A DNA stretch of 8,626 bases, from positions 1 through 8,626 of the IMG/VR virus record IMGVR_UViG_2698536618_000012; one strand, 5' to 3'. Below the pieces are notes generated by a model. It worked only from the letters and a program-made list of their open reading frames with translations, did not search any database and was not told the DNA's origin. Position 1 is the stretch's first letter. Each line of letters opens with the position of its first letter. Both the position numbers and the translations under genes were made by a program. Source of the stretch: a virus (lineage: Duplodnaviria; Heunggongvirae; Uroviricota; Caudoviricetes). Below, piece after piece: positions 3,851-8,626 of the stretch.

Positions 3851-4210
3851 ATGCTCATAGATTTGGTTTTACCTTACCCGCCGACGGTGAACACTTACTG
3901 GCGACGCCGTGGCAGCACATATTTTATCTCGGAGGAGGGAAAGCGTTATCGCCGGGCTGTGGCGCTTATTGTTCGCCAGCAGCGGCTGAAATTAAGCCTG
4001 TCCGGAAGGCTGGCGATAAAGGTGATTGCAGAGCCACCGGATAAGCGTCGTCGCGACCTGGACAACATTCTGAAAGCACCGCTGGATGCGCTGACGCATG
4101 CGGGAGTGCTCATTGATGATGAGCAGTTTGATGAAATCAATATTGTACGTGGTCAGCCAGTATCTGGTGGACGGCTGGGTGTGAAGATTTACAAAATTGA
4201 GAGTGAGTGA
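3851..4210 (+). CDS. rusA: RusA-family Holliday junction resolvase (crossover junction endodeoxyribonuclease)
   Basis: 119 aa with SD AGAGG 7 nt upstream. Translation carries the RusA hallmarks (N-terminal LPYPPTVNTYWRRRG, catalytic-region RRRDLDN, C-terminal GG.L...I) and aligns by eye with E. coli RusA. Confidence 0.9.
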   Translation: MLIDLVLPYPPTVNTYWRRRGSTYFISEEGKRYRRAVALIVRQQRLKLSLSGRLAIKVIAEPPDKRRRDLDNILKAPLDALTHAGVLIDDEQFDEINIVRGQPVSGGRLGVKIYKIESE

Positions 4211-4218
4211 GCGTAAAT

Positions 4219-4749
4219 ATGATATATCCGGAAATTACAGGCAAAAGCGGCGAACATTTACGCCTGAACACGCTGGAAGCAGTCTGGATCCAGGGGAAAT
4301 TACGGATGTGGGGGCGGTGGTCGTATATCGGTGGGGGTAAATCCGGAAATATGTTTAACCGGTTACTGGTTTCGAAAAAGCTGACGAAAACAGCAGTTAA
4401 TGAGGTTTTACGCAGAATGAAGAAATCCGGGCTGGAAAAACCGGAACTTGAGGCATTTTTTCGGGATATGACAAGAGGAAAGCAGAAGAGCTGGTTGTCA
4501 CATTGTACAGACACAGAGGCGTTGATTATTGATCGCGTTATCAGTGAGGTGCTTGGGGAATATCCCGGGCTAATCAATATTCTCCGGCAAAGGTACGAAG
4601 GACGGGGAATGAGTAAGAGAAAAATGGCAGAATGTTTAAATCGTACTCACCCGGAATGGTGTTTCAGCACATGTGAGAAACGTATTGCAGGTTGGTTAGC
4701 CGTGGCTGAACACATGCTTTATGTACCTATGCACGATTCATTTCGATAA
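4219..4749 (+). CDS. putative late-gene antiterminator (Q-like) protein, 176 aa; functional assignment is positional
   Basis: ORF immediately downstream of rusA (the canonical Q position in lambdoid phages) and followed by a hairpin-rich leader and strong intrinsic terminator. ATG 4219 is preferred over GTG 4207, which overlaps the rusA stop. No Q-family motif could be verified by eye. Confidence 0.55.
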   Translation: MIYPEITGKSGEHLRLNTLEAVWIQGKLRMWGRWSYIGGGKSGNMFNRLLVSKKLTKTAVNEVLRRMKKSGLEKPELEAFFRDMTRGKQKSWLSHCTDTEALIIDRVISEVLGEYPGLINILRQRYEGRGMSKRKMAECLNRTHPEWCFSTCEKRIAGWLAVAEHMLYVPMHDSFR

Positions 4750-4990: not shown

Positions 4991-5188
4991 ATGCTAAAAC
5001 AGCAGGATATGACCGAAACCGCCAGAGTGGTGTTTAATGAATTAAGCGTCACCGAACCGGCGACCGTCGAGGAAATTGCGCAGAACACTTATCTTTCACG
5101 CGAACGCTGCCAGTTAATACTGACCCAGCTTGTTATGGCGGGTCTGGCAGATTATCAGTTCGGTTGTTACAGACGCCTTCCTCAGTGA
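4991..5188 (+). CDS. small winged-helix DNA-binding protein (65 aa), PapI/FaeA-like or controller-like regulator
   Basis: Internal ATG of track ORF 4868..5188 with SD AAGGGAAAAAGG. TVEEIAQNTYLSRERCQLILTQLVMAGLADYQFGCYRRL has a helix-turn-helix-wing pattern. The GTG-extended N-terminus (4868-4990) looks non-coding. Confidence 0.5.
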   Translation: MLKQQDMTETARVVFNELSVTEPATVEEIAQNTYLSRERCQLILTQLVMAGLADYQFGCYRRLPQ

Positions 5189-5198
5189 AGGCTTTTTT
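5175..5198 (+). terminator. intrinsic terminator overlapping the stop codon of the wHTH gene
   Basis: GCCTTC-ctcagt-GAAGGC: 6-bp stem followed by TTTTTTATTT. Confidence 0.6.
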
Positions 5199-6801: not shown

Positions 6802-7176
6802 ATGAAAAACAGTGTCCAGTTTATTACTGATAATGCCGGTGTTAGAACCGGGGTCATTATGTCAGTTGCTGAATATGAACGGCTGTTAAGTCTGGCAGAT
6901 CCTGATGATGATTTTGAAAGCATCCAGTATGAAGCCGGAGAGCATGACAATGAAACAATACCTCATGAAGTAGTATCCATCATGATTGATGATGATGTGT
7001 CATTGTTGGCAGCATGGCGGATTTACAGGCGAATGACTCAACAGGAAGTGGCGGAGCGCCTGGGGGTTAAACAGTCAGCCGTATCTCAGTTTGAGAGAGC
7101 AGGAGCTCCGCGAAAATCAACACTGGAAAAACTGGCTGAGATTTACAACTGCCGACCAAATCAGTTGGCTGATTAA
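6802..7176 (+). CDS. antitoxin with N-terminal Phd/YefM-like segment and C-terminal XRE-type HTH (124 aa)
   Basis: AAGG 7 nt upstream of ATG. N-terminus NAGVRTGVIMSVAEYERLLSL resembles the YefM/Phd motif; C-terminus LLAAWRIYRRMTQQEVAERLGVKQSAVSQFERAG...LEKLAEIY is a classic HTH_XRE. Lies directly downstream of the toxin. Confidence 0.8.
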   Translation: MKNSVQFITDNAGVRTGVIMSVAEYERLLSLADPDDDFESIQYEAGEHDNETIPHEVVSIMIDDDVSLLAAWRIYRRMTQQEVAERLGVKQSAVSQFERAGAPRKSTLEKLAEIYNCRPNQLAD

Positions 7177-7482: not shown

Positions 7483-7914
7483 ATGTTTGGTATTTTCAAA
7501 AAGAAAACCCGCAGAGCAGCAACTGAAATTAAAAAGTTTGAGAAACGCGATCTGGCACAGGCGGTTATTAATGCTGCCTACCTGGTGGCCTATGCAGATG
7601 GTGAATGTGAGACTTCAGAGAAAGTGAAGATCGAACAGGTATTACGTAACCAGCCAGCATTGTCCGCATTTACGTCAGAAATTAATGCCATCAGTGCCAC
7701 GATCACAGGTCAGCTTGACACCAATTTTAAAATTGGTCGTCGTGCAGCGTTGCGTGAAATTGAAGATGTGAAACACGATACGCGTGAAGCGGAAGATGTG
7801 CTGGATGTGGCGGTGGCCATTGCTGAAGCAGATGGTGAAATTGAGCCGGAAGAGCGTAAGGTTCTGGAAGAGATTGCTGGTGTTCTTGGCCTGCGACTGG
7901 AGAACCACCTGTGA
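7483..7914 (+). CDS. TerB-domain protein (tellurite-resistance TerB-like, 143 aa)
   Basis: SD AAGGA 8 nt upstream. Two copies of the TerB-type helical motif (hydrophobic-x-A-x-A-D-G-x-acidic...E-K/R): AAYLVAYADGECETSEKVKIEQVL and DVAVAIAEADGEIEPEERKVLEEIAGVLGL. Confidence 0.7.
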   Translation: MFGIFKKKTRRAATEIKKFEKRDLAQAVINAAYLVAYADGECETSEKVKIEQVLRNQPALSAFTSEINAISATITGQLDTNFKIGRRAALREIEDVKHDTREAEDVLDVAVAIAEADGEIEPEERKVLEEIAGVLGLRLENHL

Positions 7915-8078
7915 CGGTAAAACTGCGTCTGGCCGCTGTGGCACTCCTGCTGTTTCTGGTGGTGATGGTGGATTTCACCAGCAGGATCATGTCGGTGCTG
8001 GCGGATGGAGTGCTGGTCTGCGGCATTGTGGTATTGCTGTGGCCGGTGATAAAAAGAAACAGCCTGCATAATGCTTGA
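7911..8078 (+). CDS. small two-helix membrane peptide (55 aa), translationally coupled to the TerB-like gene
   Basis: GTG 7911 overlaps the TerB stop (GTGA); GGAGAA sits 6 nt upstream. Own translation VTVKLRLAAVALLLFLVVMVDFTSRIMSVLADGVLVCGIVVLLWPVIKRNSLHNA shows two hydrophobic stretches. Not in the track (under 60 aa); an alternative start at ATG 7965 would give 37 aa. Confidence 0.45.
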   Translation: MTVKLRLAAVALLLFLVVMVDFTSRIMSVLADGVLVCGIVVLLWPVIKRNSLHNA

Positions 8079-8243
8079 TTTTTTTGTTTGCTGTTTATTA
8101 AAAACACTTCTGCATGGTGAATCCCCCTGTGCGGTGGGGCAATCAGCAAGAAGGAATATGGGGTAATCGCGGATTCAGGTGCTGATACTGAATTCACCGG
8201 GAGGCACCCGGCACCATGCAAGAAAAAGAATGTGCATGCAAAC

Positions 8244-8271
8244 ATGCCCCTCTCCGGAGGGGCATTTTTTA
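8244..8271 (+). terminator. strong intrinsic terminator (9-bp stem ATGCCCCTC-tccg-GAGGGGCAT followed by TTTTTT)
   Basis: Read directly from the sequence. An adjacent hairpin GCCCGAA-tggg-TTCGGGC (8284-8301), preceded by AAAAAA, would act as a terminator for the opposite strand, so the pair may be bidirectional. Confidence 0.7.
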
Positions 8272-8363
8272 TGGGTAAAAAATGCCCGAATGGGTTCGGG
8301 CAATAGCATGAGATACTGATATTGTTGTGTTGTTATCGTGTGGATTTTAACCAGGGTTTATCA

Positions 8364-8389
8364 GGCTGCGCAACTGCGTGGCCTTTTTT
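8364..8389 (+). terminator. candidate intrinsic terminator (8-bp stem with two G-U pairs, loop AACT, followed by TTTTTT)
   Basis: GGCTGCGC-aact-GCGTGGCC followed by TTTTTTC; a second terminator only about 95 nt after the previous one. Confidence 0.5.
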
Positions 8390-8396
8390 CATTTCT

Positions 8397-8443
8397 TGGG
8401 CTGTAGTCCCCGTGTGTCATTCAGGCTTCCGGACTACAGCCCA
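8397..8443. repeat. 13-bp perfect inverted repeat with 21-nt spacer (TGGGCTGTAGTCC ... GGACTACAGCCCA)
   Basis: Read directly from the sequence; lies about 45 nt upstream of the ATG at 8486. Confidence 0.7.
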
Positions 8444-8485
8444 CTCCATATCTGATTTAATACACTATCCCGGCCGGGAGGAATA

Positions 8486-8626
8486 ATGACATTTAAACAT
8501 TATGATGTTGTCAGGGCGGCGTCGCCGTCAGACCTTGCGGAAAAGCTGACACACAAACTGAAAGAGGGCTGGCAGCCGTTTGGTAGTCCGGTGGCCATAA
8601 CCCCTTATACCCTGATGCAGGCGATT
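8486..8626 (+). CDS. 5' part of a hypothetical phage protein (continues beyond the window)
   Basis: ATG 8486 with SD GGGAGG 4 nt upstream; open to the window end. Translation MTFKHYDVVRAASPSDLAEKLTHKLKEGWQPFGSPVAITPYTLMQAI. May be a DUF1737-type small protein found near lysis cassettes, but this is unverified. Confidence 0.6.
   Translation, partial: MTFKHYDVVRAASPSDLAEKLTHKLKEGWQPFGSPVAITPYTLMQAI

Follow-up and report, generated by a model that had tools for sequence, protein, structure and literature searches.

A conserved candidate RNA stem-loop in the nanS-p leader, adjoining a terminator that overlaps the putative AgvB promoter of an Stx-type prophage module

The DNA preceding the nanS-p gene in this prophage contains the known sRNA AgvB and, in addition, a conserved, previously undescribed stem-loop, which on comparative evidence is supported as a cis-acting RNA element of the plus strand, located in the nanS-p leader of the late mRNA. 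The analysis covered a window of 8,626 nucleotides, by which is meant the whole stretch of viral DNA examined. We assign a probability of about 0.55 to the complete account, in which AgvB, an intrinsic terminator with a second use as part of the AgvB promoter (terminator 2) and a plus-strand stem-loop acting as a structural boundary in the late mRNA are combined. The finding is a modest one and does not represent a new kind of system. No description of terminator 2 or of the downstream stem-loop was found in the open-access literature searched, where accounts of the module end at the sRNAs. The features discussed are as follows.

8083-8276, plus strand: STnc100/EcOnc06-type Hfq-binding sRNA (Rfam RF02076)
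8244-8265 (stem) and 8266-8271 (T-run), plus strand: terminator of the STnc100-type sRNA (terminator scan)
8277-8338, minus strand: AgvB, anti-GcvB sponge sRNA (Rfam RF02702)
8344-8373, minus strand: putative AgvB promoter (read from the sequence)
8363-8389, plus strand: intrinsic terminator 2, stem 8363-8384 (terminator scan)
8397-8443, plus strand: conserved stem-loop with a 13-bp stem and a 21-nt C/U-rich loop (repeat search, folding and comparative data)
8468-8482, plus strand: small hairpin UCCC-GGCC-GGGA, stem 8468-8471 / 8476-8479 (MFE and centroid folds)
8486-8626, plus strand: 5' end of nanS-p (yjhS-like), a 9-O-acetyl sialate esterase gene that runs off the window (Pfam DUF1737)

AgvB and its convergent partner constitute a known sRNA dyad module

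A covariance-model search against Rfam identified AgvB with a score of 96.5 bits, as compared to a gathering threshold of 56, over model positions 1-62/62, and agreement with the Rfam consensus is complete (62/62 positions identical). The identical AgvB sequence is present in E. coli O157:H7 Sakai, where it yields a ~60-nt primary transcript that sponges GcvB, and its function, 5' end mapping and Northern detection (60 nt) have been published (Tree et al. 2014, Mol Cell 55:199, PMC4104026). The published 5' end, in agreement with Rfam, corresponds to position 8338 in the window; the RNA begins with CGAUAACAACACAACAAUAUC and carries the CACAACA motif as aligned in Rfam, known as the mimic of the GcvB R1-seed target in the 5' variable region of AgvB (PMC4104026). 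Its Rho-independent terminator is the minus-strand hairpin at 8302-8283 (TGCCCGAACCCATTCGGGCA) followed by TTTTTT, with the U-tail at 8282-8277. The suggestion in the original prediction that the hairpin GCCCGAA-tggg-TTCGGGC with its T-run could terminate the minus strand was indeed correct, since this is the terminator of the RF02702 family member, although the identity of the gene itself had been missed. AgvB is an already published sRNA, and nothing in this part is new.

The STnc100/EcOnc06-type sRNA on the plus strand matches RF02076 over its full length (139.4 bits, gathering threshold 47) and forms a convergent pair with AgvB, which has been described as transcribed antisense to EcOnc06 in an sRNA dyad (review PMC7873438). 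Positions 8083-8485 correspond to the 'sRNA dyad' module known from Stx-type lambdoid prophages, located between the late-regulatory/moron region and the nanS-p/lysis genes. The AgvB/AsxR dyads of EHEC lambdoid prophages (PMC4104026; RF02702, RF02703, RF02076) have the same architecture, a plus-strand Hfq-binding sRNA converging on a ~60-nt minus-strand sponge, as well as the same location, with the moron region on one side and a conserved esterase ORF upstream of the lysis genes on the other; 8277-8338 does not differ from them and is a member of this group. The module was found in ~12% of the complete E. coli genomes searched (654/5426), with a median of three copies per carrier genome. In homologous phages, the counterpart of nanS-p is annotated as yjhS or as a SASA-family esterase, and the 5' end present in the window encodes the DUF1737 N-terminal domain (Pfam, E = 1.1e-16).

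Plus-strand terminators had been predicted at 8244-8271 and 8364-8389, bounding a 95-nt terminated segment. Both terminators stand, with scan stems at 8244-8265 and 8363-8384 and a T-run after each. However, a plus-strand transcription unit between them does not: the promoter scan revealed no sigma-70-like promoter on the plus strand between the two terminators, and the segment is a minus-strand gene with a promoter. Two further candidates in this part were rejected, namely a plus-strand sRNA between the terminators, with no promoter-like site and no Hfq peak listed for Sp10 or Sp17, and a 54-aa ORF with a TTG start (8322-8486), which crosses a terminator and in which the loop-length differences among homologues (21, 25, 27 and 11 nt) are out of frame.

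Terminator 2 shares its bases with the putative AgvB promoter

Terminator 2 consists of a 9-bp stem (AGGCTGCGC / GCGTGGCCT) with six G-C pairs, a 4-nt AACT loop and a following TTTTTT, and its stem forms in the MFE fold, the centroid fold and the RNAalifold consensus. From these features its assignment as a canonical intrinsic terminator is, apart from termination in vivo, strongly supported. On the opposite strand, the putative AgvB promoter is composed of a -35 box TTGCGC (reverse complement of 8368-8373), an 18-nt spacer, a -10 box TAAAAT (reverse complement of 8344-8349) and a start at 8338, and this spacing is correct for the mapped 5' end. The left arm and the loop of terminator 2 provide the -35 box on the other strand, and the A-tract upstream of the promoter is overlapped as well. 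A divergent anti-sRNA class retains the same -35 box, with a different good -10 box (TATTAT).

The core of terminator 2, CTGCGCAAnnGCGYGRCC-TTTTT, is near-invariant in homologues, even in phages with diverged flanks, part of this invariance being due to ascertainment, as many loci were fetched using the terminator 2 sequence as a pattern. None of its pairs has changed on both sides (0/8), and the outer 2 bp are lost in 18/43 variants. Hence, sequence rather than structure appears to be conserved in terminator 2, which fits an overlapping promoter and is still compatible with terminator activity of the strong version present in this window. The near-invariance combined with the lack of covariation is probably best explained by the same bases doubling as the -35 box of the AgvB promoter. 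Term-seq data for strain Sakai are cited with the accession printed as GSE14363, beside dRNA-seq data under GSE143631 (PMC7547250, PMC7873438).

In a lysogen, terminator 2 would keep polymerase that leaks past 8244-8271 from entering nanS-p and the lysis genes, and Q-modified polymerase would read through it. Lambdoid Q-read-through terminators (lambda tR' / 6S RNA; StxS, Sy et al. 2020, PMC7547250) are likewise intrinsic, precede lethal lysis genes on the late strand and are overridden by Q, as is proposed here, and the likeness to StxS extends to the short RNA terminated upstream of terminator 2, the STnc100-type RNA, being also an Hfq-binding sRNA. Unlike tR', terminator 2 is not promoter-proximal, with Q at 4207-4749 in the window and several morons in between, and it follows the sRNA dyad as a second terminator, doubling as the putative promoter of an opposite-strand sRNA.

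A 13-bp inverted repeat with a stable predicted fold

The repeat search retrieved two arms of 13 nt at 8397-8409 (TGGGCTGTAGTCC) and 8431-8443 (GGACTACAGCCCA), which are 100% complementary and separated by 21 nt, exactly as had been predicted, with a measured gap of 42 nt between 8443 and the nanS-p ATG at 8486. The repeat is real and beyond chance, since only 5/1000 first-order Markov simulations of the window produced a perfect inverted repeat of 13 bp with 3-60 nt between its arms (mean 0.008), corresponding to an expectation of ~0.005-0.008 per window. A 61-nt RNA with the hairpin folds with -28.0 kcal/mol as compared to -12.5 +/- 2.5 kcal/mol for shuffled sequences (z = -6.2), and 0/200 shuffles were as stable.

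When the palindrome was searched for elsewhere, within the window, no further copy of an arm at <=2 mismatches was obtained. Dispersed copies of the REP / BIME type are likewise absent from the window, and in viral contigs the true matches to the hairpin pattern are confined to this position beside terminator 2. Each of them is accompanied by terminator 2 or a visible remnant of it and lies upstream of the nanS-p start, and away from terminator 2 the viral-contig search returned only GC-rich false positives. Rfam returned no family for 8390-8450 at a cut-off as loose as E <= 1. The hairpin was also considered as an intrinsic terminator of one or the other strand, and this was rejected, because no conserved U-tract follows the stem in either orientation. 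Complementarity of the loop to the seed of the neighboring anti-sRNA was also rejected, as Stx1 phages have the same loop and a different anti-sRNA 5' region.

Comparative evidence favors an RNA stem-loop on the plus strand

A hairpin occupies this position in ~ten sequence classes of Stx-type and related prophages, and the stem is kept in 42/47 distinct variants with the loop replaced by unrelated sequences of 8-27 nt. Lack of conservation in related phages, named in the original prediction as the outcome that would speak against a role of the palindrome, is thus not what is seen. Compensatory changes have altered 6/13 pairs on both sides (0 in slid controls), and the outer helix is 97.6% paired, as compared to 29-39% in slid controls, with 0-2/500 shuffles reaching the observed values; these numbers come from ~ten classes of related, recombining prophages, and hence from few independent events, and the shuffle control ignores relatedness. 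RNAalifold predicts the stem-loop independently and unprompted. Furthermore, 1-5 G·U pairs are present on the plus strand in every one of the ten classes and 0 on the minus strand, and the plus-strand hairpin is the more stable in 8/10 classes, by 6-9 kcal/mol in the class of Shigella 75/02 and by 7 kcal/mol in the class L281. A metagenome scan for more divergent classes yielded two (L281 and L284), and a search of viral contigs for such classes yielded none.

Given the compensatory changes, the variable loop and G·U pairs restricted to the plus strand, the repeat is best read as a plus-strand RNA stem-loop, and the same features favor an RNA stem in the late transcript among the roles suggested in the original prediction. 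Recent single-base stem variants include four that give a plus-strand G·U, four to five that give A·C (equivalent to a minus-strand G·U) and one transversion, which reveals no clear purifying selection or strand bias, so that the sequence evidence for strand specificity is moderate.

An antisense RNA as a possible functional strand

The functional hairpin could instead be that of the minus strand, forming part of a longer antisense sRNA (~271 nt) with a structural or Hfq-presenting role. Such an RNA would start near or inside the 5' end of nanS-p, cross the repeat and the sequence complementary to terminator 2, and end at the terminator of the anti-sRNA. We regard this explanation as unlikely, though it is the alternative that survives best. 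It is supported by Hfq-CRAC peaks in Sp4 (EcOnc21, on the strand opposite PR') and Sp15 (EcOnc42), both with Northern bands of ~271 nt (Tree et al., PMC4104026). After calibration, the peaks fall on the terminator-2/hairpin region of the antisense strand (L218, 417-502; L216, ~778-860), a placement made from the NC_002695.1 coordinates of PMC4104026 using AgvB (offset ~+141 at Sp10) and the stated homology of EcOnc42 to EcOnc21; the same calibration rejects a location of the EcOnc42 peak on the nanS-p start codon. Peaks over the hairpin in lysogens imply that the minus-strand hairpin exists in vivo in related prophages and could be the functional one. In Sp4 and Sp15, a promoter-like ATGCCA-17-GATAAT also overlaps the nanS-p start on the minus strand. 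In the 933W/Sp4 classes, the loop of the minus-strand hairpin is rich in purines and contains A-R-N repeats (AGAAGAGAGACAACAG), the motif bound by the Hfq distal face, and a perfect palindrome folds on either strand.

However, the fixed G·U pairs are without exception those of the plus-strand hairpin, and in Shigella 75/02, L281, L122 and L284 the hairpin of the minus strand collapses or is far weaker. For the AgvB-type prophages Sp10 and Sp17, the class to which this window belongs, no such Hfq peak is listed (PMC4104026). The equivalent promoter in the window, ATGTCA-17-GATAGT, is weaker and below the scan threshold, the predicted antisense start would yield ~190 nt and not 271, and the minus-strand loop in the window has few A-R-N triplets.

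In a variant of this explanation, the complementary hairpins are loop-loop 'kissing' partners, and the antisense RNA pairs with the nanS-p leader and silences leaky late expression. Accordingly worded, the stem-loop and its complement would be recognition hairpins by which an Hfq-bound EcOnc21/42-type antisense RNA, made in the lysogen, silences leaky read-through into nanS-p and the lysis genes, a proposal that we consider distinctly improbable. It would resemble hok/sok, CopA/CopT and RNAI/RNAII in having complementary stem-loops on a sense RNA (the nanS-p leader) and on an antisense RNA (EcOnc21/42-type), the latter being Hfq-bound. It differs from these systems in the loops, 21-27 nt here as compared to 5-8 nt, in the documentation of the antisense transcript, which is confined to sister prophages, and in the G·U asymmetry, which weakens the antisense hairpin.

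Unlikely alternatives: a relic, an operator and other targets

The hairpin may alternatively have no function of its own, being either what is left of an old moron terminator after loss of the U-tract or a recombination boundary hitch-hiking with the module of terminator 2 and the anti-sRNA promoter, which seems quite unlikely. Such an origin would accommodate recent stem variants that are disruptive as often as not, and mismatches are tolerated in the commonest classes: a T·T mismatch interrupts the middle of the stem in the commonest one (933W/Stx2), and two are present in class D. A recombination junction lies inside the loop in the lineage of L161, L162 and L174, a partial deletion is found in L132, and many carriers are cryptic prophages. 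The hairpin is also absent from one copy of terminator 2 (L177) and from some nanS-p alleles with a wholly different AT-rich leader; it follows from these alleles that the hairpin is not required for nanS-p expression in general. Against a relic, ~ten classes have kept a stem at this place despite exchange of the entire loop and several double substitutions, whereas neutral decay should have wiped out a 13-bp repeat, and the strand-specific G·U pattern would be unexpected.

A DNA operator for a dimeric phage or host protein, regulating either the AgvB promoter or nanS-p, is very unlikely, contrary to one of the roles originally suggested. The repeat is perfect in this window and its center is ~82 bp upstream of the AgvB start on the minus strand, i.e. 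upstream of the AgvB promoter, and symmetric changes of half-sites would also be expected if an operator had co-evolved with its regulator. However, the spacing of the half-sites, 21 nt here, is 27, 25, 11 or 8 nt in homologues, by which they would be rotated and separated relative to each other, and several classes are palindromic only when G·T is counted as a match. Moreover, no second copy of a half-site exists in the window, and the only helix-turn-helix gene identified in it (6802-7176) is paired with a ParE toxin and so is probably its antitoxin.

Least probable of all is a role of the stem in RNase III processing or as a nut/put-like antitermination RNA of the late transcript, both of which had originally been proposed; in favor of these roles, an RNA stem would adjoin a terminator on this transcript. 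Classical E. coli RNase III substrates comprise about two helical turns, i.e. ~20 bp or more of near-continuous double-stranded RNA, and in these phages late antitermination depends on Q and is established at the promoter. The stem of 13 bp here, and of at most 15 bp in homologues, some with mid-stem mismatches, is shorter than such substrates and has a large loop, and hence the sequence does not support an RNase III target. Antitermination finds no support in the anatomy either: there is no boxA with a 5-bp boxB GNRA-like hairpin and no two-hairpin put arrangement as in HK022, only one class has a boxA-like CGCUCCUUA after the stem, and the single stem is located downstream of terminator 2, which it would have to suppress.

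A possible structural boundary in the late mRNA

For the plus-strand stem-loop, our best guess is a role as an mRNA stability or processing boundary. AgvB would be made from its own promoter, ending at the minus-strand hairpin and U-tail, and on the late transcript the stem-loop would form right after terminator 2, thereby setting a structural boundary within this long mRNA. The two structures are joined by a single-stranded, U-rich linker (UUUUUUCAUUUCUU), at which an endonuclease could plausibly enter. A cut in the linker would provide the nanS-p/lysis mRNA with a stable 5'-proximal hairpin, shielding it against 5'-end-dependent decay, and the RNA upstream of the cut would retain a terminator-type 3' end.

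Stem-loops that stabilize mRNA are found in E. coli in 5' UTRs or between cistrons, as in the ompA 5' hairpin and the papBA processing product. The stem-loop described here resembles them in being stable, GC-rich and without a U-tract, in being followed by an AU-rich single-stranded stretch and then a ribosome-binding site, and in lying inside a polycistronic transcript, next to a U-rich linker in which cleavage could occur. Unlike them, it is not at the start of a primary transcript, and neither the promoter scan nor reading of the sequence found a promoter that would place it at a primary 5' end; its loop (21-27 nt) is also unusually large.

Physiological implications

Beyond AgvB, the analysis offers a fuller anatomy of the dyad module, in which a second terminator would shield nanS-p and the lysis genes with the same bases that serve as the anti-sRNA promoter. 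The gene whose leader contains the stem-loop, nanS-p, has been linked to EHEC growth on mucin sugars. Should the stem govern how stable the nanS-p/lysis mRNA is or how well it is translated, or should it mediate antisense control, this would be relevant to the tightness with which late genes, including Stx in Stx phages, are kept silent in lysogens. Reviewers have called the reason for sRNA dyads sitting at this position unclear (PMC7873438). If sense/antisense pairing were true, the dyad module together with the dual-use terminator/promoter would be a fail-safe insulating lethal late genes, and not only a source of trans-acting sponges, and this would answer the published question of why dyads always sit at this position.

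Structures near the nanS-p ribosome-binding site

Within the loop of the conserved stem-loop, the motifs CUUCC and CUCCU could pair with the Shine-Dalgarno sequence of nanS-p, as a possible anti-Shine-Dalgarno element. The Shine-Dalgarno sequence itself, GGGAGGA (8476-8482), is predicted in both the MFE and the centroid fold to have its first four bases paired in the small hairpin. Across the classes, the stem of this small hairpin appears to be retained with differing loops (GGCC, GACC, GGAAAG, GGCAAG and UGAC).

The inverted repeat and its prophage setting

The predicted 13-bp palindrome is exact, with TGGGCTGTAGTCC at 8397-8409 and GGACTACAGCCCA at 8431-8443 separated by 21 nt, and it is probably a conserved RNA stem in the nanS-p leader. 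When the window was simulated 1000 times with a first-order Markov model, a 13-bp inverted repeat without mismatches (loop up to 60 nt) arose in 5 runs, and the 61-nt hairpin RNA folds at -28.0 kcal/mol as compared to -12.5 +/- 2.5 for shuffles. A search for further copies within the window revealed no second near-copy of the arm sequence. No Rfam family covers the palindrome, and no description of the stem-loop was found in the searchable literature.

The window comes from a mosaic lambdoid prophage, of which it is the late-regulatory/moron region, with Pfam matches to hok, DUF968, DNA methylase, TerB, DUF3927 and both a ParE toxin and its helix-turn-helix partner, besides the following features.

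Features around the inverted repeat
4207-4749: Q-type antiterminator (DUF1133/Phage_antitermQ; Pfam)
8083-8276, plus strand: STnc100 (RF02076), Rfam 139 bits
8244-8265 and 8363-8384, plus strand: terminator stems, each followed by a T-run (terminator scan)
8338..8277, minus strand: AgvB (RF02702), Rfam 96.5 bits against a gathering score of 56
8302-8283 followed by TTTTTT, minus strand: terminator-like stem (terminator scan)
From 8486: DUF1737 N-terminus of the NanS-p (YjhS-like) sialate O-acetylesterase (Pfam)

Both plus-strand terminators were recovered where the original prediction had placed them. The best phage match is PPyecE_EH1910, whose holin and endolysin come after the esterase. The whole window (at least 80% covered at one place) occurs in 0 complete E. 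coli genomes, and matches to the 8272-8490 piece occur in 654 of 5426 complete genomes (618 records at >=99% identity), where carriers have it at a median of three places each.

Conservation of the stem and its strand

Among homologous regions from annotated phages, viral contigs and metagenomes, the complete hairpin was present in 42 of 47 distinct variants of the terminator 2 (8363-8389) region, the exceptions being one lineage with a recombination junction within the loop (loci L161, L162 and L174), a partial deletion (L132) and a locus with unrelated sequence downstream (L177). About ten sequence classes of the stem can be distinguished.

Representative stems (left arm, loop, right arm, pairing)
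Class A (window, Stx1a phages): TGGGCTGTAGTCC, 21-nt loop, GGACTACAGCCCA; perfect stem, with the outer T-A pair unformed in Stx1a copies (C opposite A)
Class B (933W, Stx2a phages): CGGGCTGTAGTCT, 27-nt loop, GGACTTCAGCCCG; one T·T mismatch
Class C (Shigella phage 75/02): CGGGCTGCGGTTC, 25-nt loop, GGACCGTGGCCCG; three G·U pairs
Class D (Sakai Sp4, Sp15): CGGGCTGTTGTCT, 27-nt loop, GGACTTCAGCCCG; two mismatches
L122 (viral contig): ACTGGCAGTTGTCT, 11-nt loop, AGACTTCAGTCAGT; three mid-stem mismatches
L182 (viral contig): GTGGGCTAAGGTTC, 25-nt loop, GAACCTGTAGCCCGC; one bulged G
L281 (metagenome): GTAGGCTGCGGTTC, 25-nt loop, GAACTGTAGTCGC; 4-5 G·U pairs, one bulge
L284 (metagenome): GGCTGC, 8-nt loop, GCAGTC; mini hairpin

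In a 43-sequence MAFFT alignment, both sides had changed at 6 of the 13 pairs and the outer helix was 97.6% paired, while sliding the 3' partner by 1-3 columns as a control left 29-39% paired with 0 double changes. The observed pairing measures were reached by 0-2 of 500 shuffles, and RNAalifold recovered both helices unprompted. The earlier suggestion of an RNA stem in the late transcript is thereby supported, also by G·U pairs, of which the plus-strand hairpin has 1-5 in every class and the minus-strand fold 0. In 8 of 10 classes the plus-strand fold is also the more stable of the two, the margin being 6-9 kcal/mol in class C and 7 in L281. Plus-only G·U pairs and greater stability thus indicate the late-mRNA strand as that on which the hairpin would act, a call that is only moderately supported because independent events are few. 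Within-class singletons are unbiased (four to plus-strand G·U, four or five to A·C), and many carriers are decaying cryptic prophages.

The main rival, itself unlikely, is that the functional hairpin lies on the minus strand, as a module of a longer (~271 nt) antisense sRNA. EcOnc21 (Sp4) and EcOnc42 (Sp15) are Hfq-CRAC peaks opposite the late operon with Northern bands of ~271 nt (PMC4104026), and with coordinates calibrated from NC_002695.1 they overlie terminator 2 and the hairpin; hence antisense RNA across the repeat exists in sister-prophage lysogens. However, for AgvB-type prophages no EcOnc21/42-like peak is listed. Table S2 of Tree et al. 2014 uses NC_002695.1, with a shift against NC_002695.2 of ~+141 nt at 1.94 Mb and 0 at 1.18 Mb; the offset was ~0 at Sp4 and ~+141 at Sp10, where AgvB lies at 8421-8482 of the collected locus (L217), and re-use of this table needs such recalibration. 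The antisense-strand loop is A-R-N-rich in the Sp4/Sp15 classes, and a promoter-like ATGCCA-17-GATAAT lies on that strand over the nanS-p start in Sp4 (L218 537-565) and Sp15 (L216 709-737), a possible start of the ~271-nt RNAs, although its predicted RNA of ~190 nt does not fit that length and the window equivalent (8464-8492, minus strand) is weaker, ATGTCA-17-GATAGT.

An operator of a dimeric regulator, as once proposed, is unlikely, with half-site spacing that spans 8-27 nt among homologues; the suggested RNase III and antitermination targets are disfavoured by a stem of 13-15 bp, which appears short for a classical RNase III site, and by a position downstream of a terminator, without the boxA/boxB or two-hairpin anatomy of nut/put sites. 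A terminator (U-tract conserved on neither strand) and a REP-like repeat (all true hairpin-pattern matches at one position, beside terminator 2) were likewise rejected.

In Sakai Sp10, the AgvB1 prophage, the right arm carries a 4-nt CAGC duplication (L217 ~8585-8600, corresponding to window 8431-8443) and the loop a T-to-A change, so that the hairpin of this copy differs slightly in the reference strain of the published transcriptomics.

Overlap of terminator 2 with the predicted AgvB promoter

Terminator 2 is canonical in the window, with a 9-bp stem and T6. Its core, CTGCGCAAnnGCGYGRCC-TTTTT, is near-invariant across phages, even with flanks and anti-sRNA of another class, an invariance that is partly ascertainment, as many loci were fetched with this very pattern; the same core, with few point variants and one internal deletion, is found in loci retrieved by BLAST, NanS-p protein or hairpin pattern. 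No pair of the helix covaries, and 18 of 43 variants have lost the outer two. Upstream of 8338 on the minus strand are TTGCGC (reverse complement of 8368-8373), an 18-nt spacer and TAAAAT (reverse complement of 8344-8349), 6 nt past which AgvB starts (8338). Read on the opposite strand, the left arm and loop of terminator 2 supply the putative AgvB -35 box, and its T-run supplies the A-tract upstream of that box; the divergent anti-sRNA class has a different yet good -10, TATTAT. We read this as sequence conservation that the predicted AgvB promoter imposes; in the window, the conserved element doubles as a canonical terminator. On the plus strand, terminator 2 would halt polymerase leaking past the first terminator (8244-8271), before nanS-p and the lysis genes, and Q-modified polymerase would disregard it.

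Proposed role in the nanS-p leader

The stem ends 42 nt before the nanS-p ATG and is followed directly by a 24-nt AU-rich single-stranded stretch. A small hairpin, UCCC-GGCC-GGGA (8468-8471 / 8476-8479; site 8468-8482), pairs the first four Shine-Dalgarno bases; its stem is kept in divergent leaders with different loops (GGCC, GACC, GGAAAG, GGCAAG, UGAC), which suggests that it tunes nanS-p translation. The order of stable hairpin, AU-rich spacer and structured ribosome-binding site resembles that of stabilising 5' leaders, and the U-rich linker between terminator 2 and the stem is a plausible endonuclease entry site. From this layout we propose a processing and stability boundary: the stem would form once Q-modified polymerase clears terminator 2, and the nanS-p/lysis mRNA would gain a protected 5' end. 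A general requirement for nanS-p expression was rejected, some nanS-p alleles having an unrelated AT-rich leader. What is new here would be the undescribed conserved stem-loop, probably RNA on the plus strand, and the dual-use terminator/promoter predicted from sequence, both ordinary kinds of element.

AgvB and neighbouring elements

Of the terminated segment originally predicted, the terminators and the minus-strand hairpin stood, and the segment itself is the known gene AgvB, unrecognised at the time and identical to the Rfam consensus at 62/62 positions; half of the finding is thus an sRNA gene already known. Consequently GCCCGAA-tggg-TTCGGGC with its T-run, correctly predicted to terminate the minus strand and recovered in the scan as stem and TTTTTT, is the AgvB terminator. 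AgvB (EcOnc01) is a ~60-nt Hfq-bound sponge that blocks the GcvB R1 seed and aids EHEC growth in bovine rectal mucus (PMC4104026); EcOnc06 is its partner in the dyad of converging sRNAs (PMC7873438).

The 3' ends of STnc100 and AgvB share 12 nt, GGGCATTTTTTA (8260-8271) and its reverse complement (8276-8287) forming a perfect inverted repeat 4 nt apart (8260-8287), and hence both have an identical terminator foot and U-tail. The STnc100/EcOnc06-type sRNA (8083-8276) is separated from the Q gene (4207-4749) by a terminator-like site (5175-5192) and methylase, ParE/HTH, TerB and DUF3927 morons, and Sakai Sp15 likewise has a second STnc100 copy downstream of stx1B (L216 938-1147); the element hence behaves like a component of the dyad module rather than a promoter-proximal late leader. 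A 172-aa minus-strand ORF (7727-8245), which the Sakai annotation lists as hypothetical protein ECs_1960, probably results from a spurious gene call, since the TerB gene and most of STnc100 overlap it on the opposite strand.

A hok/sok-type toxin-antitoxin locus occupies 1650-1974, with sok (RF01794) at 1650-1821 (106.7 bits) and, at 1819-1974, an ORF of 51 aa that Pfam assigns to Hok/Gef (E = 1.2e-23). IsrK is an sRNA of the Gifsy-1 prophage, and a weak isrK-like match (1983-2064; 26.6 bits, gathering score 50) lies just 3' of hok, closed by a terminator-like hairpin at 2043-2060.
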